Source: Oscillospiraceae bacterium
GTDB lineage: Bacteria; Bacillota; Clostridia; Oscillospirales; CAG-272
Assembly: GCA_015063855.1 (NCBI GenBank)
Contig: SVTI01000001.1
Coordinates: forward strand, 8,017 to 72,016
DNA length: 64,000 nt
Direction: 5' to 3'
A model generated the notes under the pieces. That model saw only the letters and a list, made by a program, of their open reading frames with translations, was not told the DNA's origin and did not search any database. The number at the start of each line of letters is the position of its first letter. The stretch's first letter is position 1. The position numbers and the translations under genes were made by a program. Positions 42,612 through 59,582 of the stretch are shown here, piece after piece.

Positions 42612-42666
42612 TTGACCTATCATCCGATTTGGAGATGATGGATCTTAATTTTTCAAGGAGGAATTA

Positions 42667-42756: not shown

Positions 42757-42759
42757 TTT

Positions 42760-42882: not shown

Positions 42883-43210
42883 GATAACTAAACACGCTGA
42901 CCTTGTTAATGTCAAGGATGAGAACATTCTGCCGTATATTAAATGCTTGCTTGGAAGAATTCAAGCAAGTTATAATTATCGCCCCGATCAGTCAATAGAA
43001 CCGATTGGGGCAGTTTTCCTTTTGGAAACAGATATCGACTTACTTAACTACGCTGAATTTGGACTATCCGTTCCCTTAACAGAAAATCGTTTTGAATGGA
43101 TAGAAACAGTTGAGCAAGGAAACTATTGTGACGGGTGTATCGTCATAGACAACGAGAGAGCCATCAACATTGTGGGAAAACGTGATTTCTTTGCAATGTT
43201 TGGGGCATAG
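42875..43210 (+). CDS. Hypothetical protein
   Basis: 111 aa with an AGGAGG RBS. Confidence 0.5.
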   Translation: MVKITKHADLVNVKDENILPYIKCLLGRIQASYNYRPDQSIEPIGAVFLLETDIDLLNYAEFGLSVPLTENRFEWIETVEQGNYCDGCIVIDNERAINIVGKRDFFAMFGA

Positions 43211-43275
43211 GTCATATAATCCATAGGGCATAAATCTAAGTGCCGTAACGAACAAAATTAGGAGTTGAAATTATT

Positions 43276-43602
43276 ATGTCAGAAAATAAAAACAGTAAGA
43301 ACGATAAGGAGAAGTTCAATGAACTTCTCACCTATCTTTCGGAGAACGAAGACAAGTTGAGGGTGCTTCTGTCTGGAGATCAAAAATTAGCACCCCTTGT
43401 TTACCCCATAAAAGGCAAGCGGTCAACTAAAACTGTGTTCATTGCCGAGAAGCTCCAATGCCTTGTAAACGAATACTGTATCGATAAGGAGCTAAAGATC
43501 GGTGATGTAATGGAATATGCCTTGATACAGTATTTGAATCAAAACGGCTATTCGGATAAGCTTGAAGCGATCCTTAAAAACTCGGAGGTGGTTAATCCGT
43601 GA
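43276..43602 (+). CDS. Small DNA-binding-like protein (possible ribbon-helix-helix), coupled to recombinase 1
   Basis: 108 aa. The C-terminal half KTVFIAEKLQCLVNEYCIDKELKIGDVMEYALIQYL has a strand-helix-helix pattern. It shares a GTGA overlap with the recombinase start. Confidence 0.45.
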   Translation: MSENKNSKNDKEKFNELLTYLSENEDKLRVLLSGDQKLAPLVYPIKGKRSTKTVFIAEKLQCLVNEYCIDKELKIGDVMEYALIQYLNQNGYSDKLEAILKNSEVVNP

Positions 43603-45092
43603 CATCCGAGAAGAAAGCAGCCATCTATGCCAGATACAGTTCAGACAATCAACGTGATGAATCAATAGATGCACAAATATGTGCTATGGAGAATTACGCT
43701 AAGAATCACGATATTCGTATTGTTGCTACATACATTGACAGAGCCAAGAGTGCTACAAGCGACCAACGACCCAGCTTTCAGGAAATGATCAAGGTAAGCG
43801 AAACGGGTCTGTTTAACATCGTCATGGTACATAAGCTGGATAGATTTGCAAGAAGCAAATATGATAGTGCAATCTACAAGCAAAAGCTTAAAGCAAACAA
43901 AGTTCAGTTGATAAGCGTAACCGAACAGTTGGACGGCTCTCCTGAATCTATTATTCTGGAATCTGTTCTTGAAGCAATGGCAGAATACTATTCCAAAAAC
44001 CTTGCAAGAGAGGTAATTAAGGGTCTAAGGGAGAACGCTAAGACTGCCACTCATACAGGCGGTGTAGCTCCTCTCGGCTATGATATAGTTGACAAGAAAC
44101 TTGTAATTAACGAGAACGAAGCTCAGGCGGTTAGAATAATCTTTGATATGTATTCACAAGGTCATCCGTATAGTGAGATCATCAACGTTCTTAATCAACA
44201 GGGACATGTAACACGAAAGGGAGTACCTTTTGTAAAGAACAGTTTGTATGAAATACTCCGCAACGAAAAATACCGTGGTGTCTATATATACAATAAATCT
44301 GCAAGTAAATCAGCTAATGGTACATACAATCGTCATGCCTACAAATCCGAGGACGAGATAATCAGGATAGATGGTGGGTGTCCTGCCATTGTTTCTAACG
44401 AGGTCTTTGAGATAGTTGCCAAGCGGCAGAGGGAGAACCGCAGGAAATTTGGCAGGAATGAAGGACGTCAGAAATACCTTCTGAGCGGATTGGTGTTCTG
44501 CGGTAACTGTAATGCTCCCATGCATGCCAACAAACGTAAAAAAACATCTCAGCTGACTTTTCGATGCAGCAACCAAGGAAAGACTTGCAAAGAAATAAAC
44601 ATGGCGGTATTAGAGACCCATGTGCTTCGAGTATTGAGAGAGAATATTTTCTCTTATCAAAAAATCCCTGATATAATGCGTATTATAGAGAAATATACAG
44701 GGGATTGCGATAATATGCAACGAAGCAAAACTGAGGATATAGAAACACAGCTTGCTGAGATATCACATTCTAAGGAAAACATTTTGAAAGCAATAGAAAG
44801 CGGAATCGTTGCTTCTCATTTCAGTATGCGATTGGATGAACTAAAAGCTCAGGAAGAGCTTCTACAAGCAGAATTAGTGCTTGCAAACCAACCTCAGAGC
44901 TTTCACGTGACCGAGAAGGACGTTAAACTGTTAATAAACCGATTTCACTTTATGATGAAGGAATACGATGTGGTAGGTCTTAGAAAAATCATTCTTGATT
45001 TTGTTAAGTCTATCACCGTAACTGCCGGAACAATCGATGTGAAATTAAAGATCTCCTTCGGTGATGTGGCGATTGATGAATTGTCTGCCTGA
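43599..45092 (+). CDS. Large serine recombinase 1
   Basis: GTG start. Catalytic motif: AAIYARYSSDNQRDESIDAQ. It has a recombinase domain, a zinc ribbon (CGNCNAPMH..FRCSNQGKTC) and a coiled coil. Confidence 0.9.
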   Translation: MTSEKKAAIYARYSSDNQRDESIDAQICAMENYAKNHDIRIVATYIDRAKSATSDQRPSFQEMIKVSETGLFNIVMVHKLDRFARSKYDSAIYKQKLKANKVQLISVTEQLDGSPESIILESVLEAMAEYYSKNLAREVIKGLRENAKTATHTGGVAPLGYDIVDKKLVINENEAQAVRIIFDMYSQGHPYSEIINVLNQQGHVTRKGVPFVKNSLYEILRNEKYRGVYIYNKSASKSANGTYNRHAYKSEDEIIRIDGGCPAIVSNEVFEIVAKRQRENRRKFGRNEGRQKYLLSGLVFCGNCNAPMHANKRKKTSQLTFRCSNQGKTCKEINMAVLETHVLRVLRENIFSYQKIPDIMRIIEKYTGDCDNMQRSKTEDIETQLAEISHSKENILKAIESGIVASHFSMRLDELKAQEELLQAELVLANQPQSFHVTEKDVKLLINRFHFMMKEYDVVGLRKIILDFVKSITVTAGTIDVKLKISFGDVAIDELSA

Positions 45093-45096
45093 CGAT

Positions 45097-45175
45097 GTGT
45101 CAATGTGTCCATGAAGAGTTAAGTCAAGCAAAATAATCAATCTAATGTGTCCGTCAAGTGTCCACTGATGTGTCA
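45097..45175 (+). repeat. Iteron cluster 1: five direct copies of GTGTC(C/A)
   Basis: Copies at 45097, 45105, 45147, 45158 and 45170, all on the plus strand. They lie between the convergent recombinase genes. Confidence 0.6.
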
Positions 45176-45199
45176 AATGCCCCTTAAAAAAGGGGCATT
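45176..45199. terminator. Bidirectional terminator (aatgcccctt aaaa aaggggcatt)
   Basis: Perfect 10-bp stem between convergent genes. Confidence 0.65.
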
Positions 45200-45202
45200 G
45201 AC

Positions 45203-46714
45203 TCAACAAGCTAACAAGGAAACCGTAGCACCTTCATTGTCAATATCAACTCTTTCGACATAGGTGCGGATCAAACTTTCAACGAAATAACGGTTGGTTT
45301 CCTGCTTGCAATAGGAAATGAAGATTGACCTTGCTCTTATAATATCATCTTCGCTTGGGACATAGGATAAAGACCTTGTCAATTCCGTAATGGCAATGGA
45401 AAGCTCGGCTTTTTCTTTGGCTAAAATATCCAAGCGTTCGGTGATTTGTTCGGAAGTCTCCTCAGAGCATTCCTCTAACTGGCTGATTAGGTTGTCACAA
45501 CGCTTTTTGAGTCTTGAATGCTGAGTCTTCAACTCTGATAACTTAGCCTTATTTTTTTTGGAAAGATTGGAGAAATTTTCGGAAAAGGTTTGAAGGAATT
45601 CCTTGGATAATAATTTTTGACACAAACAATTCAAGACAAAATCCTCCAACTTGAACATATCGACTTCTTTGACGTCGCATTCCCTGTGAGCCTTACTGTT
45701 GGGACAATAAAAACTGATATATAGCTTATCGTGGTTGTTTCTACGGTTAGCGTGCATGACCTGATCTCCGCAATTCTTGCAAAACACCTTGCCTGACAAT
45801 AAATAACGGGTACTTTTCGAGGAACGCTTCTTTTTCGAGGCTTCAGGCTGAGCCTTATCCCAAAGCTCAGGGCTAACGATTGGAGTACATGAGTACTTGA
45901 CGATAAGCTTTTCGTCCTTGTATAAATGCCTGTTAAACCCGTTTGTACCACGAGCAGATGAACGATTGTATTGTAATTCTCCCTTGTAACAAGGATTTGT
46001 GATAATTTCACGAATCCCGCTGACCTTAAACTGACGGTTCAACTTAGAAGTATAACCCTGCTCATTTAATATATCAGCAATTTTCTGCATACTTACTCCT
46101 TGAGCACGTTGATTAAAGATTTTTTCGACAATAAGCTTCTTTTTAGGGTCGATGGTAAGAATTCCATCAATAACCTGATAGCCCAATGGAGCTGTTCCGC
46201 CCTGCCATCTGCCCTTTTGAGCTCCTGTCAGCTTTCCACGTGCAATGTTTTCTCCGATTCGATGTGACTCTAATTCAGCCTGTTGTGCAACAAAAAAGCG
46301 GAAGGTCTCTGTCATGGGGAACACGTTGTTCAGCATAGATTCTTGTGCAGTCAACAGATTGGTATCATAATCCTTCATGGTATATTGATACTCCATAAAT
46401 AATCTTGCATTTCTGAAAAATCTGTCAAGACGATAAACAAGTACCAGATCCCATTCTCTCTCAGGATTAGATAGCTCACTCATTAGAGCTTGTAAGCCCT
46501 CACGGTCAGCGTTGCGTCCGGACTTGCCATCGTCTTTGAAAATGCCAACAATTTTGAGACCATTTCGTTTGGCAAATGCCTCATTGAATGAGATTTGGCT
46601 TTCGATAGATTCTTCTTGGTAGGAGGTAGAACAACGGGCATAAATAACACAGCGTTTTGTACGGCTTAACTCAATCATATCAGGGGATTTCTCCCCTGAA
46701 TTAAAATCAATCAT
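45203..46714 (-). CDS. Large serine recombinase 2
   Basis: Catalytic motif: RCVIYARCSTSYQEESIESQ. It has a zinc ribbon (CKNCGDQVMH..FYCPNSKAHREC) and a coiled-coil C-terminus. Confidence 0.9.
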   Translation of the reverse strand: MIDFNSGEKSPDMIELSRTKRCVIYARCSTSYQEESIESQISFNEAFAKRNGLKIVGIFKDDGKSGRNADREGLQALMSELSNPEREWDLVLVYRLDRFFRNARLFMEYQYTMKDYDTNLLTAQESMLNNVFPMTETFRFFVAQQAELESHRIGENIARGKLTGAQKGRWQGGTAPLGYQVIDGILTIDPKKKLIVEKIFNQRAQGVSMQKIADILNEQGYTSKLNRQFKVSGIREIITNPCYKGELQYNRSSARGTNGFNRHLYKDEKLIVKYSCTPIVSPELWDKAQPEASKKKRSSKSTRYLLSGKVFCKNCGDQVMHANRRNNHDKLYISFYCPNSKAHRECDVKEVDMFKLEDFVLNCLCQKLLSKEFLQTFSENFSNLSKKNKAKLSELKTQHSRLKKRCDNLISQLEECSEETSEQITERLDILAKEKAELSIAITELTRSLSYVPSEDDIIRARSIFISYCKQETNRYFVESLIRTYVERVDIDNEGATVSLLAC

Positions 46715-46871
46715 AAAGCACCACCTCCTCTGAGAAGAAGCGATAGAGAAACTCTAAGGCAACCGTTACGTCAGTTACAATATTAGCGTTATGAACAGCC
46801 GTTTTAACGGCTTCGTAATCAGCGGAATATAGGGCGTTTCTACTGATTGTGATAAGTAACTTTTTCATCAT
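46707..46871 (-). CDS. Small protein (54 aa) translationally coupled to recombinase 2
   Basis: Not in the ORF track. GGAGG RBS. Sequence: MMKKLLITISRNALYSADYEAVKTAVHNANIVTDVTVALEFLYRFFSEEVVLYD. Its stop overlaps the recombinase ATG. Confidence 0.4.
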   Translation of the reverse strand: MMKKLLITISRNALYSADYEAVKTAVHNANIVTDVTVALEFLYRFFSEEVVLYD

Positions 46872-46883
46872 TTTACCTCCTAA

Positions 46884-48257
46884 TCAAAACTCAGTATAAC
46901 GATAATCTCTTTTGATAGAAACACCATGGCAAAAACGATGATTACCTGAGTTTTTTCTCACAGTGGGAGGGTATCCTAACAGGATCATTGCATTGTCAAG
47001 CTCTCTCCAAAATTTTTTGGATGACATATTTGAAAATCCTCTGTGTCCATTTTCGGAGCACCAAAGCTTAAATGAATTATATACAACACGATTCTCCTCT
47101 TTTTCACGAGGATCATCGAGAATCAAGCATTCATTGATAAATTCTAAGAAGGGATTCTGTTCTACACGATATTCTTGTAAGAGAATATCTGAGCTTTTAC
47201 AGGGGCTGAATTTGAAGTCATTTGACTTTAGACGGTCAAGTCCTATCAATGCCCAGTTGAAAATTCCAGGGAGCTCTTCTTTGAGCTTCTCTGTGAGATG
47301 AACGTCTCTTTCATCATCATTAAAGAATTTTGAGAAATGAAGGAATTGAAGCCTACGGTAATAACCCTCACTTCTATCCTTTGTGTCTGGAAGGTTATTG
47401 GTTGACATTACGATCTTGCACTTAGGAAAGAATTCAAAAGGTTTCTTGTTCTTGTGAGATGCCATGATGCAAGTGTCTCCGCCTACAATCTGTTTGAAAT
47501 ACTGTGTGTTAAGATGGGATATTTCATTTTCCGAGCTCATAATTAACTGCTTGTCAACAAGGGTAGCTCTAACGAACTGATTGGATAAGTCAGCTAAACC
47601 TGCATAGGAGATGTTAGATCTACCAACAAGGGCTTCAATAATTGAGCTGAAAACACCTTTGCCATTACCGCCAGAGCCGTACAATACCAAAGCTTTTTGA
47701 GCTCTCGTTTCACTACTTAATAAATAACCTAAACATTCCTGTGATAGATTAATTCTTTCTTTGTCACCCTCGAAAGATGATTCCAAAAAGCTTTCCCAAA
47801 TTGGGCATTGGGCATCTGGGTCATATTCGAATGGTAATTGAACCGTACTGTAATATTCTCTCGCATGTTCGATTAAATCTCTTGTTTCTAAATCCAACAT
47901 CCCATTACGGAAATTTATGAATTTTTTGTTCTCGTTCAGTTCTCCTGCATAAAAAACCTTGTGCTTAAGAGATTCCCAATATAGGTGCTCATAACTTGGT
48001 TTCCAAGTATTTTGAGCACGCTCATTAAAATCATTCACCAACGTATTTTTGAGTTCCATATCTGATGTTTGGGTATATACCCCGTCGTTGTAATAATACC
48101 AGCATTGGTCTTTTGAGTACATTAAATCGTAATCATTATCAACAACATTAGCATACACATTACCATTAAACTCTTTGATGTCACCATTATCTTTAAATAC
48201 AAAACCAATTTTCACCATACGCAATGTTGCATAATCCGCTATCTTTTTTTTGGGCAT
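46884..48257 (-). CDS. P4-alpha / poxvirus D5-type replication protein (SF3 helicase, primase C-terminal domain family)
   Basis: Start trimmed to MPKKKIADY (GGAGG RBS). Motifs: FRNGMLDL, CPIWESFL, Walker A VLYGSGGNGKGVF, YYRRLQFLHF. Confidence 0.8.
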   Translation of the reverse strand: MPKKKIADYATLRMVKIGFVFKDNGDIKEFNGNVYANVVDNDYDLMYSKDQCWYYYNDGVYTQTSDMELKNTLVNDFNERAQNTWKPSYEHLYWESLKHKVFYAGELNENKKFINFRNGMLDLETRDLIEHAREYYSTVQLPFEYDPDAQCPIWESFLESSFEGDKERINLSQECLGYLLSSETRAQKALVLYGSGGNGKGVFSSIIEALVGRSNISYAGLADLSNQFVRATLVDKQLIMSSENEISHLNTQYFKQIVGGDTCIMASHKNKKPFEFFPKCKIVMSTNNLPDTKDRSEGYYRRLQFLHFSKFFNDDERDVHLTEKLKEELPGIFNWALIGLDRLKSNDFKFSPCKSSDILLQEYRVEQNPFLEFINECLILDDPREKEENRVVYNSFKLWCSENGHRGFSNMSSKKFWRELDNAMILLGYPPTVRKNSGNHRFCHGVSIKRDYRYTEF

Positions 48258-48486
48258 AAAAACCTCCAAAATAATAATAAATTTCTCTTTCGAGATAGTA
48301 CTATTATTTACATAACGCCAAATATAAACTCATATTTCCAAAATAAGCTAAATAATGCCGTGCTATATCAATCTTAATTAAACCTAAAATGCCCGTCGCA
48401 CATGGGCAAACAGGCATTTTGTAATTATTTCTTATAATTAAAATTTCTAATGAATAAAATAAAAAATCTAATTTTTCTAAATTGGA

Positions 48487-48636
48487 AAATTGATTCAAAT
48501 TGAAACAAATTGATTTGTGGAATTGAAATAGCATGAACTTAGAAAAATGTTGTTCGAAGTGTCCATGTGTCCATCGACAGTAACTATAAGGAAAAAAGAC
48601 AACAGGAAGTGTCAAAGAAGTGTCCTGAATCTGTCA
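48487..48636 (+). repeat. Candidate replication origin: 10-bp-phased AAATTGA repeats in an AT-rich tract, plus iteron cluster 2 (GTGTC(C/A) x4-5)
   Basis: AAATTGA occurs at 48487, 48497 and 48507, with AATTGA at 48521. GTGTCCA occurs at 48559 and 48567, GTGTCA at 48609, GTGTCC at 48620 and TGTCA at 48632. Confidence 0.5.
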
Positions 48637-48760
48637 AAGAACGATGTTCCTGATGAATGTAAGGAATTAACACAAGCAATATAGTTAAAAAACTTGATGT
48701 GGGACATAACAATTTTCGGATTTCTGTGTGGGAAACTACGGGCAGCGAACCTTCTCCGCC

Positions 48761-48839
48761 AACAAAAAAGGACACCATAAGGTGTCCTTTTTTGTTGCTG
48801 TTTGTTTGGCAGATTCGAACTCGAAGCGCCGAGTATCGG
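48761..48839 (+). repeat. ~80-bp direct repeat, copy 1 (terminator hairpin plus inverted partial tRNA-Ser variable/T-arm fragment)
   Basis: About 93% identical to 49612-49688. It is preceded by ccttctccgcca (48750-48761, a 12-bp tRNA 3'-end match). The reverse complement of 48805-48839 resembles the tRNA segment tcggcgc..agttcgaatct. Confidence 0.7.
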
Positions 48840-48959
48840 CGGGGGTCAAGTGCAGGTTTGCGCCGCCGGGGGCGGATAAAGCAAACCGAACTTGCGTGCC
48901 GCAACACAACGAGCACGAGCGACTTTAGGAGCGAAGGGGGAGTTGATGTTGCAAACGGG

Positions 48960-48980
48960 CGAATCTCTCCTTCTCCGCCA
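48960..48980 (+). repeat. 21-bp direct repeat of the tRNA-Ser 3' end (right att-type junction)
   Basis: Exact match to 39503-39523. Confidence 0.85.
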
Positions 48981-49079
48981 AACAAAAACCGCAATTCCGA
49001 TACAAAGGGATTCCGTTTTTTGTATTTATGTGGTATAATAATATAATAATAATCAGTTACGACGAATGGAGGATACTTT

Positions 49080-49582
49080 ATGGCAAAACAATTTTTGTGG
49101 ATAACGAACACAGAAGAAAACATACAGTTTTATCGTGATTCTTCCCCTAAGTCCAACCTTTCGCTTCATTTTGCATCTGCTATTGATTGCGACACAAAGA
49201 AAAACATTTGCAGATTTGTTCGCTATTTAAGGAAAGAGTTTTTCTTCCCGATAAGATGCAATGTTTATTTTTGCAATCAGGAAAAGTTTCATTCCTCCAA
49301 AGGAGGATATTGCTACGGTATCTTTTACTCAAACGAGGAAAGCGGAGGACGCATTTATCCGCAGATCTACATACCTACAAACATGAATTTGTTCTCCGTT
49401 TATCATTCGCTCTCGCACGAGCTAACGCATTATTTTCAGTGGTACTTTTTAGACGATAACGAAAAAGCGACCGTTCGCTCGAAGTTCAGGCGTCAAGATA
49501 TGCGGATCGCGTTTTGGAAGATTATTGTAGTTACTATTGTAAAGAGCCAGACAGTTCATGTAATGGTTGCCGCGGACAATAA
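49080..49582 (+). pseudogene. Small HExxH (putative metallopeptidase-like) protein interrupted at an A5 run
   Basis: Contains the motif YHSLSHELTHYFQWYF. After the A5 run at 49462-49466, a plausible C-terminus (SLEVQASRYADRVLEDYCSYYCKEPDSSCNGCRGQ*) continues in the frame reached by adding one A. That frame ends just before a terminator. Confidence 0.5.
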
Positions 49583-49611
49583 ATTTTGTATCAAAATTAC
49601 AGTCATCTGTC

Positions 49612-49688
49612 AACAAAAAGGACACCTTAGGGTGTCTTTTTTGTTGCTGTTTGTTTGGAAGATTCGAACTCGAAGCGCCGAGTATCGG
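49612..49688 (+). repeat. ~80-bp direct repeat, copy 2 (includes the terminator of the HExxH gene)
   Basis: Sequence: aacaaaaaggacaccttagggtgtcttttttgttgctgtttgtttggaagattcgaactcgaagcgccgagtatcgg. Confidence 0.7.
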
Positions 49689-49725
49689 ATTATTTATACA
49701 AAAATAAATAATTTACGCAATAAAA

Positions 49726-49754
49726 TTGACAATCACAGCAATATACTATATAAT
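49726..49754 (+). promoter_or_regulatory. Consensus sigma-A promoter (TTGACA-17-TATAAT) of the aminotransferase gene
   Basis: Sequence: ttgaca atcacagcaatatacta tataat. Confidence 0.6.
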
Positions 49755-49787
49755 AATAATCAAAATATTACTGTAAAGAGGCTTATT

Positions 49788-50636
49788 ATGAAAACCGTAG
49801 CTTATTTTAACGGGGCATTTGGAGATTTTGACACAATGACTGTTCCCATGTCGGAACGCTCAATATATTTCGGTGATGCCGTGTATGATGCAGTGCTTGT
49901 GTTGGATGGCAAGGCATTTACCCTCGATATGCATCTTGACAGACTGTATAACAGTTGCAGTCTGATGAATATAGACTTCACTATGGAGAGAGCCGAGCTT
50001 AATGCTGAGATAAACAAGCTTCTTTCTCTCGGCTGTGGCGGTATCGAGATGCTGTATGTTCAGGTGTCACGAGGTAATGCATCCCGTAAGCATGAATTCC
50101 CCGAGAATGTCCGTCCCAATCTTCTCATGTTCGTTAAGTCTATCACCCTTCCCTCTGCAGATAAGCGTGCTTCCCTTCTCTCAATGGAGGATATGCGCTT
50201 TAAGTATTGCAATATCAAGACTGTAAATCTCTTACCTAACGTTTTTGCAGCACAGAAGGCTACCGAAAGCGGATATACCGAAGCAATTATGCACCGAGAC
50301 GGTCGTGTGACCGAGGCAGCTCATTCAAGCATTCTTATCCTTAAGAACGGCAAGGTAATAATGCCTCCCTTGGATAATCTCATTCTTCCCGGCATCACAA
50401 GAGCGGTAATATCGCAGATATGCGAGGAGCTGGGCATTCCCGCAGAGATCAGAGAATTCACCCTCGACGAGGTCATGGATGCCGACGAGATCCTTCTCTG
50501 CTCCACCACAAAGAACGTTATTTTCGTCTACAATATAGACGGCAGAGAGGTTGGCGGCAAGGATCAGGAAACAGCTAAGAAGATTCAAGAGCTTTTCCTT
50601 GATAAAATTTATAAAGAAACAGGAGTACGCTTATAG
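49788..50636 (+). CDS. dat: Class IV aminotransferase, D-amino-acid aminotransferase-like
   Basis: Start trimmed to MKTVAYFNG. The track ORF from 49080 is a read-through artefact. It has the HLDRLYNS motif, and 282 aa is typical of Dat. Confidence 0.65.
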   Translation: MKTVAYFNGAFGDFDTMTVPMSERSIYFGDAVYDAVLVLDGKAFTLDMHLDRLYNSCSLMNIDFTMERAELNAEINKLLSLGCGGIEMLYVQVSRGNASRKHEFPENVRPNLLMFVKSITLPSADKRASLLSMEDMRFKYCNIKTVNLLPNVFAAQKATESGYTEAIMHRDGRVTEAAHSSILILKNGKVIMPPLDNLILPGITRAVISQICEELGIPAEIREFTLDEVMDADEILLCSTTKNVIFVYNIDGREVGGKDQETAKKIQELFLDKIYKETGVRL

Positions 50637-50651
50637 TGTACTCCTGTTTTG
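50619..50651 (+). terminator. Terminator of dat
   Basis: Stem acaggagtac/gtactcctgt with a T-run. Confidence 0.65.
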
Positions 50652-50940
50652 GTGAATTGACAGCGTTGCTGTCGTGAATTACATCACTTCGTGATGTGTG
50701 AATTGGCTTCGCCGTGAATTGAAACCGTCTCAACGGTTTCGTTGAGGTAACTTTTCTCCCTGAAGGTCGAAAAGTGTTTTGTCATTAATTGTTGACATAA
50801 TTATCTAATTAATATATAATAAAATTGATTTTCGTCCACGGGCGAAAATCTACCTTAACGAAAGCTCTGCTTTCTATTCACGGCGCAAATCGATTCGCGT
50901 ACCAAAGGTACAATTCACAACAGCAATGCTGTCAATTAAC
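50652..50940. repeat. 289-bp imperfect palindrome built from two 5-hairpin arrays with conserved linkers (GTGAATT x4, GTTGAGGTA) around a central promoter
   Basis: Left arm: GTGAATT at 50652, 50674, 50698 and 50714, each followed by a different hairpin. Right arm: the mirror image, with AATTCAC, TATTCAC, TACCTTAAC and AATTAAC linkers. The linkers and the outermost hairpin are conserved, while the inner hairpins differ in sequence but keep stem potential. Confidence 0.8.
50792..50820 (+). promoter_or_regulatory. Consensus sigma-A promoter (TTGACA-17-TATAAT) at the centre of the palindrome, driving rarA
   Basis: Sequence: ttgaca taattatctaattaata tataat. The predicted start site falls at the first right-arm hairpin (about 50827). 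Confidence 0.6.
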
Positions 50941-50958
50941 TACTGAAAGGTTAAAGCT

Positions 50959-52185
50959 ATGTCAAACCGACCCTTAGCGGACCGTATCCGTCCGCAGAGC
51001 TTTGACGATATGGTGGGACAAAAGCATCTCTTCGGAGAGAAGGGTGCCATCCGCCGTATAGTCCAAAGCAACTATCTTCCCAATATGATATTCTGGGGTC
51101 CTCCCGGCACGGGTAAGACCACCGCAGCCAATATAATAGCCGCACAGTCGGGTATGACTCTGCGTTCTCTTAATGCTACCTCTGCATCTCTTTCCGATGT
51201 CCGCGAGGTAATAGCGGAGACCTCCTCCCTTTTCGGTGCGGGCGGTATACTTCTCTACCTTGACGAGATACAGTACTTTAACAAGAAGCAACAGCAATCT
51301 CTGCTTGAATATATGGAGGACGGAAGGATAACCCTCATCGCCTCCACCACAGAGAATCCTCATCTTTATGTTTATAACGCTATCATTTCAAGAAGTGCTA
51401 CCTTTGAGTTTAAATCGGTTACCACCGAGGATATAATACCTGCATTAAAACGTGCTCTAGATATTCTAAACGAGGATTCTTCTGTAAAGAAGACTGCCGA
51501 CGATGATGCTCTTCTCTATATTGCGGAAATAGGCGCAGGGGATGTAAGACGAAGCCTTAATTATCTTGAAAATGCATATCACGTTTCTGATGAGGTGATA
51601 ACAGCCGAGGGTGTAAAGACCTTTGCGCCTAAGGTGGTAGGAACTTTTGACAAGTCGGGCACGGTTCATTATGACATACTCTCGGGAATACAGAAGTCTA
51701 TTCGCGGCTCCGATCCCGATGCCACCATATTCTATGTGGCGAAAGCTCTTGAGGGCGGCGACCTTATAGGAGTTTGCAGAAGATTGCAGGTTATCGCAAG
51801 TGAGGACATAGGTCTTGCCTATCCTCAGGCGGCATCGATCGTGCGCGCCTGCGTACAGTCTGCATTTGATCTCGGAATGCCCGAGGCGAGAATACCTCTT
51901 GCCAATGCGGCTATCATGCTTGCAACAGCACCCAAGTCCAATTCAGCTTACCTTGCTTATGCGGCAGCGGCAGAGGATATCGAGAAGGGTAAGGGGCAGA
52001 ACATTCCCGATCACATGAGACCCTCCAACCGCTATGACAACTATAAATATCCTCATGACTATCCCGGCCACTATGTGAAGCAGCAGTATCTCCCCGATGA
52101 TCTCAGAGGTGCTAAATACTATGAGTACGGTGAAAACAAGACCGAGCAGGCGGCTAAAGCATATTGGGATAAAATTAAGAAATAA
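50959..52185 (+). CDS. rarA: Replication-associated recombination protein A (AAA+ ATPase)
   Basis: Motifs: LADRIRPQSFDDMVGQKHL, WGPPGTGKTT, and the conserved C-terminus PHDYPGHYVKQQYLP. Confidence 0.9.
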   Translation: MSNRPLADRIRPQSFDDMVGQKHLFGEKGAIRRIVQSNYLPNMIFWGPPGTGKTTAANIIAAQSGMTLRSLNATSASLSDVREVIAETSSLFGAGGILLYLDEIQYFNKKQQQSLLEYMEDGRITLIASTTENPHLYVYNAIISRSATFEFKSVTTEDIIPALKRALDILNEDSSVKKTADDDALLYIAEIGAGDVRRSLNYLENAYHVSDEVITAEGVKTFAPKVVGTFDKSGTVHYDILSGIQKSIRGSDPDATIFYVAKALEGGDLIGVCRRLQVIASEDIGLAYPQAASIVRACVQSAFDLGMPEARIPLANAAIMLATAPKSNSAYLAYAAAAEDIEKGKGQNIPDHMRPSNRYDNYKYPHDYPGHYVKQQYLPDDLRGAKYYEYGENKTEQAAKAYWDKIKK

Positions 52186-52197
52186 TATAATAAAATC

Positions 52198-52232
52198 GGC
52201 GGATATGCTTTCACACATATCCGCCCTCTTTT
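52198..52232. terminator. Bidirectional terminator
   Basis: Stem ggcggatatg/catatccgcc between convergent genes. Confidence 0.6.
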
Positions 52233-52638
52233 ATTTCTTCGTACTGCTTTTGAACTTTTTAAGATTTTTTGGTTTTTTACCCTTCTTTTTGCTTCCGATG
52301 AATGCACACACGATACATACGGCAATAACAGTAAGATAGGACACCCAATTACTGAGAAGATCGGTATCTCCGAAAAGAAGCGAAAGCGCAAAGCATATAA
52401 AAATATATACACCGCCGAAAAGAATAGACGATGTAAGCTTCCCCGTATCACGTGAAAGAGACATGGAAAGTGCACCGATAAATGCCGAAGTAAAAAGCGT
52501 TGCCCTTCCGAATAATGCAAGATTCTTTGTACTGTCGCTTGAACTGTCGGCAACAGCTCCGAAAATTAAAATAAGCACTGCCGCTGTGATAACACAGAGC
52601 AGCAGTGCCCTTATAAGTGATCTGAACAAACCTGTCAT
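52231..52638 (-). CDS. Hypothetical membrane protein (4 TM, Lys-rich tail)
   Basis: 135 aa, hydrophobic. It lies downstream of yajC. Confidence 0.55.
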   Translation of the reverse strand: MTGLFRSLIRALLLCVITAAVLILIFGAVADSSSDSTKNLALFGRATLFTSAFIGALSMSLSRDTGKLTSSILFGGVYIFICFALSLLFGDTDLLSNWVSYLTVIAVCIVCAFIGSKKKGKKPKNLKKFKSSTKK

Positions 52639-52691
52639 GATCTCTGCCCTCCGATAATACTGTAGTACAGTATATTCGGCAGGAATTTAAA

Positions 52692-52979
52692 TTATAACGC
52701 TTCCTTTTCGCTTGCCTTAACGTCTACACGGCTGATAGCGCTGCGAAGAACTCTGATCTTTGTCTTGTCCTTGCCTGTTTCGATCATAACTGTCTCTTCT
52801 CTTACAGAAACGATCTCACCTACGATACCGCCGATAGTGGTGACTTCGTCGCCTACCTCGAGGCTGTTAAGCATAGCCTGCTTTTCCTTCTCCTGCTTCT
52901 TCTGGGGTCTGATAAGAAGAAAATAGAAGATGAGAAGCATTGCAACGATCATAATAAGTGAACCCATAGGATTGCCCAT
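52692..52979 (-). CDS. yajC: Preprotein translocase subunit YajC
   Basis: Motifs: LLIRPQKKQEKEKQAML and GDEVTTIGGIVGEI. Confidence 0.85.
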   Translation of the reverse strand: MGNPMGSLIMIVAMLLIFYFLLIRPQKKQEKEKQAMLNSLEVGDEVTTIGGIVGEIVSVREETVMIETGKDKTKIRVLRSAISRVDVKASEKEAL

Positions 52980-53062
52980 GTTTATATCCTCCTGAAATTA
53001 ATTACTTTTTTGTATTAAAACAACACTAAGCTATATTATAACCTATATTACCCTCGGTGTGT

Positions 53063-53659
53063 TTAAATATTTGTAAACTTTTCCTCGGTTCCCGTCGGAG
53101 CATAGTCTCTTGCCAATATAGCACAGATGCCGATATCACAAAAACCTTTTTTAACAAACATAGCCTGACGCTGTATACCTTCGAACTGCATACCGCATCT
53201 TTCCATAACGCGACGGCTTCTGTCGTTACCGAGCATATACCTTGCCTCGATACGGTTAAGACCCATTCGGTCAAAGCCGAGACGAAGCACCGCGTTTACC
53301 GCCTCACAGGCTATTCCCCTACCCCAGTAATCGGGGTTCAGAACGTACCCGACCTCTCCCTTGAAATTTGCCATATCAAGCTCTGCAAAGCCGCAGGTTC
53401 CTATGAATTTTCTGTTTTCCTTAAGTATAATGCCGAAATCGTGAAACTCGTTCTTTTTATATGCTTCCTCTATCTGAGAAAGAAAATCACGAGTATAACC
53501 CAAGCTCTCGTGAGGGGACCACAAAAGATAACGGGTCACCTCGGGCAAGCATGCGTATTCATACATATCAGAGGCATCCGAGACCCGCATGTGGCGAAGG
53601 ATAAGTCTCTCAGTCTCTATTTTCGGTGTTCGGTCAAAAAGCTTGCTTAAAAGTTTCAT
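53063..53659 (-). CDS. GNAT-family N-acetyltransferase (RimJ/RimL-like)
   Basis: Motifs: ETERLILRHM and YWGRGIACEAV, followed by a GNAT core pattern. Confidence 0.75.
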   Translation of the reverse strand: MKLLSKLFDRTPKIETERLILRHMRVSDASDMYEYACLPEVTRYLLWSPHESLGYTRDFLSQIEEAYKKNEFHDFGIILKENRKFIGTCGFAELDMANFKGEVGYVLNPDYWGRGIACEAVNAVLRLGFDRMGLNRIEARYMLGNDRSRRVMERCGMQFEGIQRQAMFVKKGFCDIGICAILARDYAPTGTEEKFTNI

Positions 53660-53812
53660 CTCTGCTCCGTCGTTGATATACTTTAAGATATATTATAACC
53701 CTGATATATCAAATTGACAATAGCAAAATTTGAAAAATTTTTAATTTGTATTGATTTGCATTTAATTTAGTGTTATTATAATATATATATTACTTTCAGG
53801 CGGTATAACTTT

Positions 53813-54601
53813 ATGAAAAAGACTTTGACATTTATCGGTTGCGGAAACATGGCAGGCGCCATCATCGAGGGTGCCGGATCCTATTCCATATGCCTTTATG
53901 ATAAAGACGCAACAAAATATGAAAGATTCAAGGATAAGCCCTATACGGCAACCTTCTCTGTTTCGGATGCCGTAGCAGAGGGCGATTATATATTCCTATG
54001 CGTCAAGCCGCAGAATAAGGACGAGATATTACCCGAAATCGCAAAATGCGATCTCTCGGGCAAAATGATAATCTCTATTATGGCAGGCGTAAAGATCTCC
54101 ACCATCGCAAAATATATCGGAGAGGAAGTCCCCGTAGTCCGTCTTATGCCCAACACTCCCCTTATGTTAGGCAAGGGTGTTACCTCCCTTACCCGTAACG
54201 ATAAGGTTACGGATAAAAAATTCTCGGACATCTGCCGTCTGTTCTCCGAGATAGGCGAGGTTATGATAGTAACCGAGGATAAGATAGATGCGGTAACCGC
54301 AGCATCAGGATCCGCACCCGCCTACGTTTATCTTTTTATAAAATCGATTGCCGATGAGGCGAGAGCCCAGGGACTTGATATAAAAAATCTCGATGCGATA
54401 ATCGCACGTATGGTCATAGGCTCATGTCACATGGTACTTGAAAGCGGCAAGACTCCCGATGAGCTTATAAACATGGTCTGCAGTCCCAACGGTACTACCG
54501 AGAGAGCGATGAAGGTATTTGAGGAAGAAAACTTCTCCGAGATCATCTCAAAGGCAATGCAGAGATGTGCCGAGCGTTCAAAGGAGCTCTCGGAAGAGTA
54601 A
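53813..54601 (+). CDS. proC: Pyrroline-5-carboxylate reductase
   Basis: Motifs: FIGCGNMAGAII, VRLMPNTP, SPNGTTERA. Confidence 0.85.
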   Translation: MKKTLTFIGCGNMAGAIIEGAGSYSICLYDKDATKYERFKDKPYTATFSVSDAVAEGDYIFLCVKPQNKDEILPEIAKCDLSGKMIISIMAGVKISTIAKYIGEEVPVVRLMPNTPLMLGKGVTSLTRNDKVTDKKFSDICRLFSEIGEVMIVTEDKIDAVTAASGSAPAYVYLFIKSIADEARAQGLDIKNLDAIIARMVIGSCHMVLESGKTPDELINMVCSPNGTTERAMKVFEEENFSEIISKAMQRCAERSKELSEE

Positions 54602-54720
54602 TAAACCTCAGTCCCCTTGCATATCTTTTAAACACAAACGTTTAAAAGAAGGGCGGGACAAGTATCACATACTCAGAGGAACAAAAAAGATACAGAAACA
54701 ACTTCATACTGCTATGTTTA

Positions 54721-55227
54721 ATGGCAGTATTGGGAATAATGATTGGTATATTTCTATACGAATATACCGATTTCTTCGCAGCACTGCGTCAAGAGAGCAT
54801 AGACACAGACTCTAAGCCCGAATTCAATACGCTTATCTCTCTTATATCCGGGGAGATAAAGCTTATAGCTTTGATCTTCATATCAGGCTTTACGCTTTTC
54901 AGTCCCTATGTCATCCCCCTTGTCTTAGTGTATAAAGGCTTTATGACAGGCTTTGCTACCCTCTATTACGGCATGCAGTACAGAAATTCGGTTCTCGATA
55001 CCCGATGCTTTATCGTGATAAGCACTTCTCTGATACTTACGGTCATAGTATTTATTATAATGGGGGCAAAGGGCTCGGTCTTTGGCTCAGCATTAAAATA
55101 TGCTGCTCCCGACATCTCATTTATTTTCAAACAGCAATTCACCAAGGATTATTTTACCGTATTTTTGCTGATGACAGCTTTCCTTGTTTTGCTGACAGCA
55201 TCAAAATATTTTATTGTATATATATAA
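54721..55227 (+). CDS. Hypothetical membrane protein (SpoIIM-like topology?)
   Basis: 168 aa, multi-TM. The frame stays open upstream to 54646 (..SEEQKRYRNNFILLCL) without a canonical start, so the true start is uncertain. Confidence 0.45.
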   Translation: MAVLGIMIGIFLYEYTDFFAALRQESIDTDSKPEFNTLISLISGEIKLIALIFISGFTLFSPYVIPLVLVYKGFMTGFATLYYGMQYRNSVLDTRCFIVISTSLILTVIVFIIMGAKGSVFGSALKYAAPDISFIFKQQFTKDYFTVFLLMTAFLVLLTASKYFIVYI

Positions 55228-55257
55228 AGCGACTTATGGTCACAAAAGGATGTAAAA

Positions 55258-56181
55258 ATGGAAAACGAACTCAAACCAATCAAGCAGAAAAAACATTTTC
55301 TCTACAATCTTTTTAACCCCCAAGGTAACGGCAAGGGGGTAGAAAAGCTCCCTGAGGGACCCGACAATATTTCAAAGTGCTTTAAGCTCTTAGGAAGAAA
55401 TATATCGAATATGTTCTATCTCAATCTCTTATTCATATTCGGAAATTTTCCTATATTCTTCGGACTTTTGGGATTCTACTTCATGGAGAGTACCACTGCT
55501 GCTTCATCCTCACTTTTCGGACCTGTAAGCGGTGCTGTAGCATTTAATGCATCCCCTGTAACAGCAGCACTCTTCGGTGTGCACGGCGCACAGGTAGCCA
55601 CCAACGTTCCCTCGAGCACCTCCTACCTCTTCTGGTTGCTTACCTTACTTGTAATATTCACCTTCGGCTTTGTTAACGTAGGCTGTGCATATATTATGAG
55701 AGCCATAGTCAAGGGACAACATTTTTCCCTCTTCTCCGACTTTTTCTCTGCAATCAAGAGAAATCTTAAGCAGGGCTTCTTCATGGGTATTGTGGATGCC
55801 ATACTTATCGCGGCATGCGTATATGCAATGGCATTCTACTATATGGTAGGATCACAGCTCTTCCTCGTTTCCATAATAATGATGTGCTTCTATGTTATGA
55901 TGCGTTATTATTTCTATATAATGCTCATTACCTTTGATCTCAGCATATGGAAGATAATCAAGAACTCACTTATATTCACCCTTTTAGGATTCAAGAGAAA
56001 TATCCTCGCCTTTATCGGAGGACTCCTTATGATATTCATTGAATATATGGTGCTCAACATCTTTATGCCCTTGGGTATTATTTTCCCCTTCGTACTCTTC
56101 TTCTCAGTTCCTATGTTCTTCGGTACCTTCGCTGCATATCCGAAGGTAAAGGAGATAATGATAGACCCTCAGCTTCAGTAA
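55258..56181 (+). CDS. Integral membrane protein (DUF624/YesL-like)
   Basis: 307 aa, polytopic. Family resemblance only. Confidence 0.5.
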   Translation: MENELKPIKQKKHFLYNLFNPQGNGKGVEKLPEGPDNISKCFKLLGRNISNMFYLNLLFIFGNFPIFFGLLGFYFMESTTAASSSLFGPVSGAVAFNASPVTAALFGVHGAQVATNVPSSTSYLFWLLTLLVIFTFGFVNVGCAYIMRAIVKGQHFSLFSDFFSAIKRNLKQGFFMGIVDAILIAACVYAMAFYYMVGSQLFLVSIIMMCFYVMMRYYFYIMLITFDLSIWKIIKNSLIFTLLGFKRNILAFIGGLLMIFIEYMVLNIFMPLGIIFPFVLFFSVPMFFGTFAAYPKVKEIMIDPQLQ

Positions 56182-56184
56182 TCC

Positions 56185-56673
56185 GTGACTCTTCATTCGA
56201 TACCGCCCGTATATGATAAAAACTCTCGTATCCTGATCCTCGGAAGTTTTCCTTCTGTTAAATCAAGGGAAGAGGGTTTCTTCTACGGGCATGTACAAAA
56301 CCGATTCTGGAGAGTTATTTCTGCGGTGTTCGAGGAGCCTGTTCCCGAAAACATTGAGAAAAAGAAACAGCTTCTCCTCAACTGCGGAATCGCTCTCTGG
56401 GACGTAATAGGCTCATGTGACATTACAGGAAGCTCGGATTCTTCCATCAAAAACGTTATTCCTAACGACCTTTCTGCAATACTTGATGCTTGCAGCATCA
56501 CGGCTATCTATACAAACGGAAAAACAGCGGAAAAATATTATAATAAATATATCGGCAATAAGATAGGCCGCAATTCGGTCTGTCTTCCTTCCACATCACC
56601 CGCAAACGCGGCATGGAGTCTTGAAAGGCTTATAAACGAATGGAATATTATAAAGACGGGATTACAAGTTTAA
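56185..56673 (+). CDS. Uracil-DNA-glycosylase-superfamily protein (DNA-deoxyinosine glycosylase-like)
   Basis: GTG start. Motif: RILILGSFPSVKSREEGFFYGHVQNRFW. Confidence 0.65.
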   Translation: MTLHSIPPVYDKNSRILILGSFPSVKSREEGFFYGHVQNRFWRVISAVFEEPVPENIEKKKQLLLNCGIALWDVIGSCDITGSSDSSIKNVIPNDLSAILDACSITAIYTNGKTAEKYYNKYIGNKIGRNSVCLPSTSPANAAWSLERLINEWNIIKTGLQV

Positions 56674-56686
56674 TCCCGTCTTCTTG

Positions 56687-57363
56687 TTATCCCAACAATT
56701 CGGACACCGTCACGAAGCTGTAGCCAAGCTCCTTAAGTCTTGGTATCAATAGTTTGAGTGCTGCAGGGGTAGGCGATTCTCCCGACACGAAATCATGGAA
56801 AAGCACGATCGAACCGTCGGCAGAATTATTCACCACGTTATTAACTATATTATCAACCGGACTGTGTGCCCAATCACGGGTATCCACCGACCAGAGGATA
56901 ACGTCGTATCCGAGTGATTCGATAAATTCACAGTTTTCACGCGAGGCATAACCCTCGACAGGACGAAAGAGCTTAGGCATATATTCGTTCTCAGAAAGTA
57001 ATATTTCCTCACACCGTTCTATCTCTGCGGCTATATCGGCATTATTGAGATTTGAGATGTTTTTATGAGAATAGGTGTGGTTTGCCACCTCGTGACCCTC
57101 CCTTATCTCACGCTCCACTATTTCGGGAAATCTCTCCACGTTCTCTCCCACGGTAAAAAGGTAGCACTGACACCTTCATTCTTCAGTATATCAAGTATCT
57201 CCTCGGTATATTTGTAATGAGGCCCATCGTCAAAGGTAAGCGCTATTCGCTTTTTGCACTCCTTGGCCTCACCGTGGTATATCGGATTTGCCGATATGCA
57301 AGAACTGCACAAACTTAATACCATGAGCGTACAAATAACAAATTTACCTTTTACAAAGCTCAT
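56687..57363 (-). pseudogene. Polysaccharide deacetylase (NodB domain) split by a frameshift in a T5/A5 run
   Basis: Track ORFs 57118..57363 (..[20 protein letters not shown]) and 56687..57151 ([18 protein letters not shown]) are halves of one NodB domain. Adding one base at 57155-57159 restores ..SATFFTVGENV. Confidence 0.7.
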
Positions 57364-58135
57364 TTAGATCACCAAACCTATATCCTTGTTTTTCCCACTC
57401 ACAAAGCAGACCTTCAAGTATTTCGGCATTGGTGGCTGAGGTGGGATGAAGCAGAAGCACCATTCCGTTATGGGTATTTTTTAAAATAAGTTCCTTTGCA
57501 TTTTCGGGATCGGGCTGTCTTTGATTATCCCAATCGGCATAAGCAAGACTCCAAAACACCGTATCATATCCCAGCTCATCGGCAAACTTCATATTTTCCT
57601 CGCTGAACTTACCCTCGGGCGGACGATAGAACTTAGCCATCTCATTACCCGTATATTCCTTATATACGGCTTCAAGATCATTTAATTCTTTCGCAAAGCT
57701 GTCCCTGTCACAAAGGGTGGTCATGTCCTTATGACTGGCAGTATGATTACACACAAGATGACCTTCCTTTGCCATACGCTTTACAAGCTCGGTATCCCTC
57801 TTTATAAGATTTTCAAGAATAAAGAACGCACCGGGAGCATTATGCTTTTCAAGGGTATCAAGGATCTTTGCTACATTTCCGTTTTCATACCCTGCATCGA
57901 AGGTCAGGTAAATGACCTTGTTTTTCTCATCAGCCCTTTTGTCTAGATAAAATCCGTCGTATTTCTCTATAAAGGACATTTGAGGCTCAAGTATCGGCTG
58001 CTCGTTTCCCTTTCTCATACAGTACCACGAATGGGTCTGCCGCGATGCTGAAAATGAAGAAAGAGGCATTGAAATGAACAGAGAAAAAATTAATAAAAAG
58101 GTAAAAATCAACTTTTTAATTTTAATCACCTCCAT
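57344..58135 (-). CDS. pdaA: Polysaccharide deacetylase, PdaA-like (spore cortex delta-lactam synthesis type)
   Basis: 263 aa with motifs [13 protein letters not shown] and [12 protein letters not shown], plus a signal peptide. Confidence 0.65.
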
Positions 58136-58250
58136 TCTAATTTTGTGTAAAACTACGTATAATACTCTCTGTAATTATTGCAATTTCTTTAAGTATATGA
58201 TAAAATAGATAAACGGTAAAAATCTGATTTTTTATTAATAAGAGGTTACT

Positions 58251-58991
58251 ATGCCAAGATTTTTTACAGATGAAAGCATGATAAATGATAATAATATAAA
58301 AATAACGGGACCTGACGTTAACCACATCAGGAATGTTCTCCGCATGCAGGAGGGTGAATCCATTACCGTATGTGATGGTAATGGTACAGACCACAAATGT
58401 ATCATTTCATCCATTGACCGCGAAGAAATAATCCTTGATATAAAATCATCCTCACCTTCGTCAAGCGAGCTCGGACAAAGGCTGTATCTCTTCCAGGGCC
58501 TTCCAAAATCGGATAAAATGGAGCTTATAATCCAGAAAGCGGTAGAGTTGGGGGTATATGAAATAATCCCCGTAGCTACCATGCGCGCCATAGTTAAGAT
58601 AGATGCTAAAAAAGAGGATAAAAAAATAGCCCGTTGGCAGCAGATAGCGCAAGCTGCAGCCAAGCAATCGGGCAGAGGTGTTATTCCAAAAATTAAAAAT
58701 CCCATGACCTTTAAAGAGGCATTAAGCTATGCCTCGGAGCTTGACGGCGTTATAATCCCGTACGAAAACGCCGAGGGTATTGAGCATGCAAGAAATGTGA
58801 TATCAGAGCTTAAGGACAAAAACTCTGTAGGTATATTTATAGGTCCCGAGGGTGGGTTTGATACAACCGAGATAGAAGCGGCACAAAAAAGCAACGTTAT
58901 TCCGATCTCATTGGGAAAACGAATTCTCCGTACCGAAACCGCAGGTCTTACAATACTTTCAATATTAATGTTCCAGGCAGAAAAAGATTAA
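58251..58991 (+). CDS. rsmE: 16S rRNA (uracil1498-N3)-methyltransferase
   Basis: MPRFF start, with motifs LFQGLPKSDKMELIIQKAVELGV and GPEGGF. Confidence 0.85.
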   Translation: MPRFFTDESMINDNNIKITGPDVNHIRNVLRMQEGESITVCDGNGTDHKCIISSIDREEIILDIKSSSPSSSELGQRLYLFQGLPKSDKMELIIQKAVELGVYEIIPVATMRAIVKIDAKKEDKKIARWQQIAQAAAKQSGRGVIPKIKNPMTFKEALSYASELDGVIIPYENAEGIEHARNVISELKDKNSVGIFIGPEGGFDTTEIEAAQKSNVIPISLGKRILRTETAGLTILSILMFQAEKD

Positions 58992-59527: not shown

Positions 59528-59582
59528 ATTAAAAACTCCTTTTGTTTTATTACACTTGTAGTTTGCACCAATATTTCAATTT

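Follow-up and report, generated by a model that had tools for sequence, protein, structure and literature searches.

Convergent GTGAATT-linked hairpin arrays around the rarA promoter of an Oscillospiraceae bacterium: probable dispersed DNA repeats of the Gut-1 class

What kind of element is the dense cluster of hairpins that separates a class-IV aminotransferase gene from rarA in an Oscillospiraceae bacterium (GenBank assembly GCA_015063855.1, contig SVTI01000001.1, forward-strand positions 8,017 to 72,016; this whole 64,000-nucleotide stretch is referred to below as the window)? At window positions 50652 to 50940, two arrays of short hairpins joined by copies of the heptamer GTGAATT face each other across a consensus promoter. 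They are probably two copies of a dispersed non-autonomous DNA repeat, similar to repetitive extragenic palindromes (REPs) and bacterial interspersed mosaic elements (BIMEs) or to miniature inverted-repeat transposable elements (MITEs), and represent a GTGAATT sub-family of the Gut-1 class. This assignment is based on insertion polymorphism, on the divergence of the two paralogous arms, on multiple near-identical relatives at unrelated loci, and on the absence of a constant gene partner combined with a preference for terminator-proximal, T-rich DNA. A BIME/REP-like mosaic was among the options listed in the initial annotation of this DNA, and it is the one that fits best, with the arms present or absent among close relatives and Gut-1 copies at unrelated loci. 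What is new here is the GTGAATT variant of the already known Gut-1 kind.

The repeat unit is ~115 to 125 bp long and consists of four short hairpins, each preceded by GTGAATT, followed by GTTRAGGTA and a fifth hairpin. The two copies are convergent and contain the following parts (hp, hairpin; primes mark the right arm):

50652..50775, + strand: left arm, 4 x (GTGAATT + hairpin), GTTGAGGTA, hairpin 5
50652, 50674, 50698 and 50714, + strand: starts of the left-arm GTGAATT heptamers
50659-50673, 50681-50697, 50705-50713 and 50721-50740, + strand: perfect left-arm hairpins between the heptamers
50741-50749 and 50750-50775, + strand: left-arm end, GTTGAGGTA and then hairpin 5
50705..50720, + strand: conserved sub-family core, the short hairpin GGCTTCGCC with its 3' GTGAATT
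50827..50940, - strand: right arm, the same unit as the left arm with partly decayed linkers; on the + strand, this is the rarA leader
50940-50899, - strand: outer part of the right arm, GTTAATT (50940-50934), hp1' (50933-50919), GTGAATT (50918-50912), hp2' (50911-50899)
50898-50860, - strand: middle part, GCGAATC (50898-50892), GATTTGCGCC (50891-50882), GTGAATA (50881-50875), hp4' (50874-50860)
50859-50827, - strand: inner end, GTTAAGGTA (50859-50851), hp5' (50850-50827)

Of the five exact copies of GTGAATT, four belong to the left arm; the fifth is in the right arm, which also contains three near copies. The start-to-start distances between the heptamers are irregular, from 16 to 27 bp, and show no helical phasing. 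Together with the 5' GTGAATT (50698-50704) and the next G (50721), the core makes the pattern GTGAATTGGC-N3-4-GCCGTGAATTG, which is decayed in the right arm. In a MAFFT alignment, an estimated half of the aligned columns are identical between the arms. The stems differ between the arms and between loci, and conservation is limited to hp1 and the short GGCNNNGCC hairpin. The inverted-repeat pairs across the arms include an outer segment of 29 nt at 90% complementarity and inner segments of 24 nt at 83% and 15 nt at 93%. The initial annotation is modified in two details: the two right-arm hairpins that it listed without a linker are separated by the decayed linker GCGAATC and a decayed copy of the short GGCNNNGCC hairpin, and the inner hairpins, which it described as unrelated, are positionally homologous units that have undergone stem turnover. 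The sequence is identical in the window and in two Joint Genome Institute (JGI) samples, 3300032167 and 3300024268; with three independent assemblies in agreement, the locus is not an assembly artefact.

Chance is excluded as the source of the heptamer/hairpin pattern. The motif GTGAAWT-N7-30-GTGAAWT occurs three times in the 64-kb window, always at this locus, compared to 0.10 occurrences expected from shuffled sequences, where 0 of 100 shuffles reached three. Because MAFFT leaves the stems out of register, per-hairpin shuffles and a census of base pairs were used in place of a covariance model. In the GTGAATT sub-family, 17 of the 18 inter-linker spacers fold better than their own shuffles (combined Fisher p = 7e-24) and jointly hold 101 Watson-Crick pairs and 1 G.U pair. 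The predicted folds of the arms have z scores of -3.2 (left) and -2.6 and -3.45 (right, on either strand), and the entire 311 nt, folded as a single strand, reaches z = -11 in a structure of linker helices with side hairpins. The layout, the heptamer shuffles and the spacer folds thus bear out the initial description of two mirror-image hairpin arrays around a promoter, and the suggested comparison of hairpin potential with shuffled controls came out in its favor.

Database searches relate the element to a known family, which the initial annotation had considered impossible to name. The sole meaningful Rfam match is Gut-1 (RF01706), at positions 50650-50730 of the left arm. It reaches 30.1 bits, below the gathering score of 50, with E = 5e-4 in a search of the region and E = 0.075 in one of the whole window; no Gut-1 match at the gathering level is found anywhere in the window. 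In the cmscan alignment, all three hairpins of the Gut-1 model and their linkers are paired, with a single-position difference in the linker. The array thus has the Gut-1 architecture, at a score below the threshold. Membership was judged by the presence of at least three short hairpins on a constant GUGAAAU-type heptamer, of which the left arm has four, linked by GTGAATT, and by the context of the Gut-1 seeds, namely, a start 0 to 2 nt after a terminator U-tract and a facing mirror array, which the left arm also shows. Canonical Gut-1 arrays are found in a metagenome-assembled genome of a relative (L146, RarA 63% identical; 74.2 bits) and in two viral-contig loci, L075 (77.7 bits) and L025 (61.9 bits, with its mirror arm at 30.5 bits).

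The Gut-1 motif was described by Weinberg et al. in 2010 (PMC2864571) and was known there from human gut metagenomes only. The Rfam model covers only 77 nt and a single arm and hides features that can be seen in the seed alignment with flanks (PMC2864571, Additional file 4). The seed arrays start 0 to 2 nt past a terminator composed of an A-tract, a hairpin and a U-tract, often behind a tRNA or a stop codon, and most of them continue into a mirror array with AUUUCAC or AUAUCAC linkers; the forward linkers are lineage specific, either GUGAAAU or GUGAUAU (PMC2864571). Four Gut-1 copies in contigs of one metagenome are 91 to 95% identical over 204 nt and have unrelated flanks. Six further canonical arrays in viral contigs, besides L075, share the same layout and come after a tRNA piece and a terminator. 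Scans of viral contigs for the linkers only (GTGAAWT x3 and GTGAATT x3) yielded mostly tandem repeats; among the matches listed, only L025 and L075 were real arrays.

Two further roles were considered and rejected. A phage att or integrase arm site does not fit locus L358, where a tRNA fragment marks the end of the integrase gene; the terminator and array are located past this fragment, and therefore in the host flank rather than in attP. A role as an origin of replication was likewise set aside; the phage-contig context of L025 is uninformative. In that contig (5188-5407), the Gut-1 mirror pair precedes 3.7 copies of an 11-bp repeat and 17 copies of a 7-bp repeat, upstream of the scaffold and capsid genes. 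Genes for four-helix-bundle/23S rRNA intervening-sequence proteins begin right after Gut-1 pairs at two independent loci, L362 (~1-230, in the minus-strand reading) and the seed BAAV01000249 (PMC2864571, Additional file 4); in L208, a gene of this family lies 3 kb upstream of rarA. In canonical arrays (the Gut-1 seeds and L359 to L363), a 5' segment, e.g., GAAATAAATCC or TATATTCGCC, shows complementarity to two places, the adjoining half of hairpin 1 and a segment in the center of the pair (GGATTTATTTC or GGCGAATATA), which allows two mutually exclusive pairings.

A single metagenome scan for GTGAATT...GTGAATW...GTTRAGGTA returned 58 matches, 56 of which were due to chance, and the remaining two, L337 and L350, are GTGAATT-type arrays. 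Each shows the order gene, terminator, 4 x (GTGAATT + hairpin), GTTAAGGTA, with stems unrelated to those in the window, and both share the core pattern with the left arm of the window. Rfam does not detect Gut-1 in either of them and the left arm of the window falls below the gathering score, so these loci constitute a sister sub-family outside the curated threshold. With L337, L350 and the canonical Gut-1 loci, the further homologues that the initial annotation proposed to look for do exist. The core GTGAATTGGC-N3-5-GCCGTGAATTG has no matches in viral contigs. Neither a peptide-coding nor a CRISPR-like reading of the arrays was retained, given a period that is not divisible by three, repeats of only 7 nt and palindromic spacers.

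How did the arrays come to flank the rarA promoter? RarA homologues at graded levels of identity were traced to their contigs, and the intergenic regions between the aminotransferase gene and rarA were compared. In the window, this region includes the following features:

49080-50636: class-IV aminotransferase gene, an extended open reading frame (ORF) call of 518 aa; true length ~282 aa, end at 50636
50617..50649, + strand: intrinsic terminator of the aminotransferase gene (A-tract, 15-bp stem, U-tract), an inverted repeat
50645..50651, + strand: TGTTTTG, the upstream one of two direct 7-bp repeats on either side of the left arm, a possible target duplication in the terminator U-tract
50775..50781, + strand: TGTTTTG, second copy of the direct repeat, which supplies the T-tract after hairpin 5
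50792..50820, + strand: promoter, TTGACA (50792-50797), 17 nt, TATAAT (50815-50820), matching the consensus at 12 of 12 positions
50945..50961, + strand: rarA ribosome-binding site (GAAAGG) and ATG (50959), unpaired in the leader fold

The 518-aa ORF is regarded as an extension because its Pfam match spans amino acids 268 to 484 and the relatives have 282 aa. Clean empty sites for both arms are found in L207 and L208 (RarA 95% identical) and in L209 (93%), where, in a spacer of 88 to 104 nt in total, the aminotransferase terminator leads straight into "atttaattgTTGACAtaatt...TATAAT" and a short leader. The right arm is also missing from L206 (RarA 98% identical), where a 204-aa ORF on the minus strand is inserted at the spacer, and from L202 to L205 and L356 (96 to 97%), which carry a different, hairpin-rich insert of 274 nt that has no Rfam match and is not Gut-1-like. 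More distant species representatives have a tRNA and a short leader in place of the arms, and the scan of RarA relatives among species representatives (best, 76% identical) revealed no array upstream of rarA.

A homologous promoter is present at the right-arm-less sites of L207, L208, L209, L206 and L202. The promoter is therefore ancestral and is not carried by the mosaic. Thus, the perfect TTGACA-17-TATAAT promoter between the arms reported in the initial annotation stands, and its placement at the center of a single element does not. The arms appear to be two separate recent insertions, one on each side of an existing rarA promoter, and both would have been gained after the split from the relatives with 98% identical RarA. 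As the arms are only about half matching although both would be recent gains, they probably come from distinct source copies. The left arm begins 1 nt past the U-tract of the terminator at 50617-50649, which predates the arrays, given the same terminator at the empty sites of L207, L209 and L206. Cutting out positions 50652-50781 gives a junction that resembles the empty site of L207.

The insert of the L202-type relatives (L202, 9608-9935; likewise in L203, L204, L205 and L356) is bordered on both sides by the terminator palindrome AGGAGTTATACTTTAAATATAACTCCT, duplicated perfectly over 27 bp. L203 has other genes upstream, and its breakpoint lies exactly at the left end of the 274-nt insert.

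A consensus promoter between inverted repeats is also what would be expected of an inverton, in which a recombinase or homologous recombination acting on the arms would flip the rarA promoter and make rarA phase variable. The complementarity between the arms, the two serine recombinase genes 4 to 7 kb upstream and the rearranged gene order around rarA among the relatives all agree with this possibility. However, a single orientation is seen in all three assemblies (a minor one could be hidden by assembly), and the recombinases are large serine integrases (with Resolvase, Recombinase and Zn-ribbon domains) encoded in a tRNA-Ser island, not adjacent small invertases. In addition, other members of the class form mirror pairs without any promoter between them, and the arms at rarA were inserted around an already fixed promoter. 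An inverton is accordingly very improbable. Even less credence is given to a duplex binding-site array for a transcription factor or a nucleoid protein that would regulate rarA, another option of the initial annotation. The heptamer resembles half-sites such as GTGAA/TTCAC, and its exact and near copies are placed symmetrically around the promoter. Nevertheless, the irregular spacing of 16 to 27 bp is not helically phased, a binding array would leave the perfect hairpin in every spacer unexplained, the same arrays are found, with no promoter close by, behind the terminators of unrelated genes and of tRNAs, and close relatives use the same promoter without the arms.

The pairing pattern itself bears on whether the constraint acts on RNA or on DNA. 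The 82 hairpins of the class surveyed here (from the window, L337, L350, L146, L075, L025 and 11 seeds) contain 374 Watson-Crick pairs and 1 G.U pair, and the opposite strands contain 6 G.U in 379 pairs. In the control set of 841 terminator-like hairpins, taken from the window and from related loci, 11% of the pairs are G.U (Fisher p = 1.5e-17), and in the subset of 131 hairpins with at most 8 pairs, this fraction is 4.2% (Fisher p = 2.5e-5). On the GTGAWWT strand, 21 of 35 triloops are of the TNC type, and the complementary loops (GAA, GCA and similar) prevail in the mirror arms. Read on the AWWTCAC strand, the TNC loops become C(GNA)G, including the exact GCGAAGC. Such C(GNA)G loops reportedly form unusually stable DNA minihairpins (Hirao 1994; Yoshizawa 1997). 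Fold energies show no strand bias for the forward arms; the bias of the reverse arms comes from GNRA/GNA loops and a hairpin with a GA/GA internal loop. These data suggest that pairing is constrained as a palindrome on DNA, with the scarcity of wobble pairs counting against a purely RNA-level constraint, and that a single strand of the element may be the folding strand.

Several observations, nevertheless, weigh against a mobile DNA repeat. Some of them favor the published view of Gut-1 as a structured noncoding RNA, in which single-stranded heptamers between the hairpins would be bound repeatedly by a protein or an RNA, as a sponge or a scaffold; applied to the window, this view would make the right arm the rarA leader and the left arm either a divergent small RNA (sRNA) ending at the bidirectional terminator or a read-through 3' extension. 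Weinberg et al. rated Gut-1 as "RNA: Y" on the basis of covariation (PMC2864571). Conserved single-stranded linkers combined with fully covarying stems are a classic RNA signature, and the covarying stems fit RNA equally well. The wobble argument is suggestive only, because short GC-rich stems disfavor G.U in any molecule. Thirteen of 24 loops are also compatible with a C(UNCG)G RNA tetraloop, and GNRA loops and the conserved GA/GA internal-loop hairpin are found in the reverse arms. The AWWUCAC-strand arrays run into an A-tract/hairpin/U-tract terminator, as the 3' end of a small RNA would, and the right arm certainly lies downstream of a consensus promoter. Other difficulties concern mobility. 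No direct repeat or target duplication is visible around the right arm, L337 or L350, and the right arm is not preceded by a terminator. The loss of both arms in the relatives, instead of their gain here, would be a less parsimonious alternative. No Y1/HUH transposase, including the RAYT (REP-associated tyrosine transposase) family, was found by Pfam in 40 scanned of the 42 window ORFs of at least 150 aa, the other two being rarA, whose domains were obtained separately, and ORF 62921-63703. Finally, there is no second GTGAATT locus beyond the two-arm one in the 64-kb window and none in ~1.3 Mb of related loci, where one canonical Gut-1 array, in L146, was the only find.

An RNA function, which the initial annotation had among its options as a pair of divergent structured RNAs, is possible but on balance appears unlikely. 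Only 1 of 375 pairs is G.U, in contrast to 4 to 11% in terminator hairpins of the same genomes, and arrays in the Rfam orientation start 0 to 2 nt after a terminator, which leaves no room for a promoter. Mirror pairs place the arms on opposite strands, the neighboring gene is inconsistent between loci, and the arms are dispensable in relatives with 93 to 98% identical RarA. The left arm is offered only a weak minus-strand promoter (9 of 12 consensus positions).

If the arrays are dispersed DNA repeats, members of the class would be copied to new sites, typically just past intrinsic terminators, often yielding convergent pairs. At rarA, the left copy would have landed in the U-tract of the upstream terminator and the right copy between the rarA transcription start and the ribosome-binding site. 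The sequence of the heptamer would be preserved, either by selection or by the machinery that copies the element, as would the capacity of every spacer for single-strand hairpin formation, with the stem sequences free to drift. The GTGAATT sub-family is presumably mobile, with single-stranded DNA as its active form. With transcription predicted to start near position 50827, the rarA mRNA would have a 131-nt leader with a 10-bp stem-loop at +1, five hairpins and a free ribosome-binding site, in line with the geometry (right arm as leader, stem-loop near +1) initially proposed. This hairpin leader may stabilize the rarA mRNA. On the minus strand, hp5' together with AATTTTATTA is terminator-like, and each arm would offer a terminator-like hairpin and a T-tract to outside transcription entering the promoter. 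At this locus, the pair of insertions is probably neutral.

On a broader and more tentative view, which is possible but doubtful, the entire Gut-1 class might represent a new kind of mobile DNA repeat: arrays of C(GNA)G-type single-stranded DNA hairpins on a lineage-specific heptamer, copied by a hairpin-recognizing enzyme to sites 3' of terminators, forming convergent pairs, and able to rewire untranslated regions (UTRs) and bracket promoters, as at rarA. If so, Gut-1 matches should not be annotated as sRNA genes, and gut Clostridia would hold a REP-like system. In either case, Gut-1, which has been an orphan small RNA in Rfam for 15 years, gains a testable identity, and it can now be placed, together with its sister sub-family, in assembled Clostridia genomes and prophage flanks from both ruminant and human gut. 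The pairs of filled and empty sites can be used for defining the ends of the element, and the terminator U-tract as the insertion site, the almost purely Watson-Crick stems and the GNA-type loops on one strand provide leads to the mechanism. The local lesson is that a housekeeping gene can acquire a long, structured leader from such inserts and have its promoter enclosed by them.

Upstream of the locus, a tRNA-Ser(gct) gene is located at 39433-39523, and sequences repeating its 3' end lie at 48960-48985 (92% identical) and, in partial form, at 48750-48769, so that the repeats bound an island of ~9.5 kb (39433-48985). This tRNA scores 54.7 bits at 39433-39520 in an e-value Rfam search (threshold, 29) and is absent from the gathering-threshold search of the whole window. 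The island encodes two large serine recombinases, at 43599-45092 (+ strand) and 45203-46714 (- strand), and a D5_N/DUF5906 primase at 46884-48269 (- strand). A 75-nt block, consisting of a terminator hairpin and a tRNA-like fragment, occurs twice immediately upstream of the aminotransferase gene, at 48765-48839 and 49615-49688; the copies are 98% identical and 850 bp apart. Downstream, the gene order around rarA (window 50959-62900, compared with L206 and L209; RarA 93 to 98% identical) is inverted or reshuffled, and the blocks affected are YajC-GNAT-P5CR-UDG and the polysaccharide deacetylase/methyltransferase genes.

Among known systems, the REP, BIME and REPIN sequences of Proteobacteria, which are mobilized by RAYT Y1 transposases, resemble the arrays described here in being extragenic palindromes located after genes or terminators, in forming doublets and mosaics of alternating orientation, in their presence or absence among strains and in a possible role as mRNA stabilizers or terminators. 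However, REP stems are conserved in sequence within a genome and carry a 5' GTAG, whereas in the window the stems differ and it is the 7-nt linker that is kept; the host also belongs to another phylum, and there is no RAYT among the scanned window proteins. REP and BIME sequences number in the tens to hundreds per genome; the 64-kb window contains one locus with two arms. MITEs and the small repeats of Firmicutes, such as bcr1 of Bacillus cereus and pneumococcal BOX and RUP, are similarly small, noncoding, hairpin rich and insertion polymorphic, can join UTRs and might share a short target duplication (TGTTTTG at the left arm). In contrast to MITEs, a single arm lacks the terminal inverted repeats of an identifiable insertion sequence and has no known parent insertion sequence, and the linker/hairpin array has a different organization. 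The likeness to invertons is limited to a promoter bracketed by inverted repeats in a gut anaerobe; there is one orientation and no dedicated invertase, and the repeats in the window are long, imperfect and themselves hairpin arrays. The closest counterpart is Gut-1, with which the locus shares freely varying short stems on a constant heptamer (GUGAAAU in Gut-1 and GUGAAUU in the window, one base apart), a terminator-adjacent start, frequent convergent mirror pairs and hosts among uncultured gut Clostridia. The unit in the window differs in having four hairpins, a GTTRAGGTA end and a fifth hairpin, and where the Rfam model describes a single arm as an sRNA gene, the evidence presented here points to a dispersed DNA repeat.

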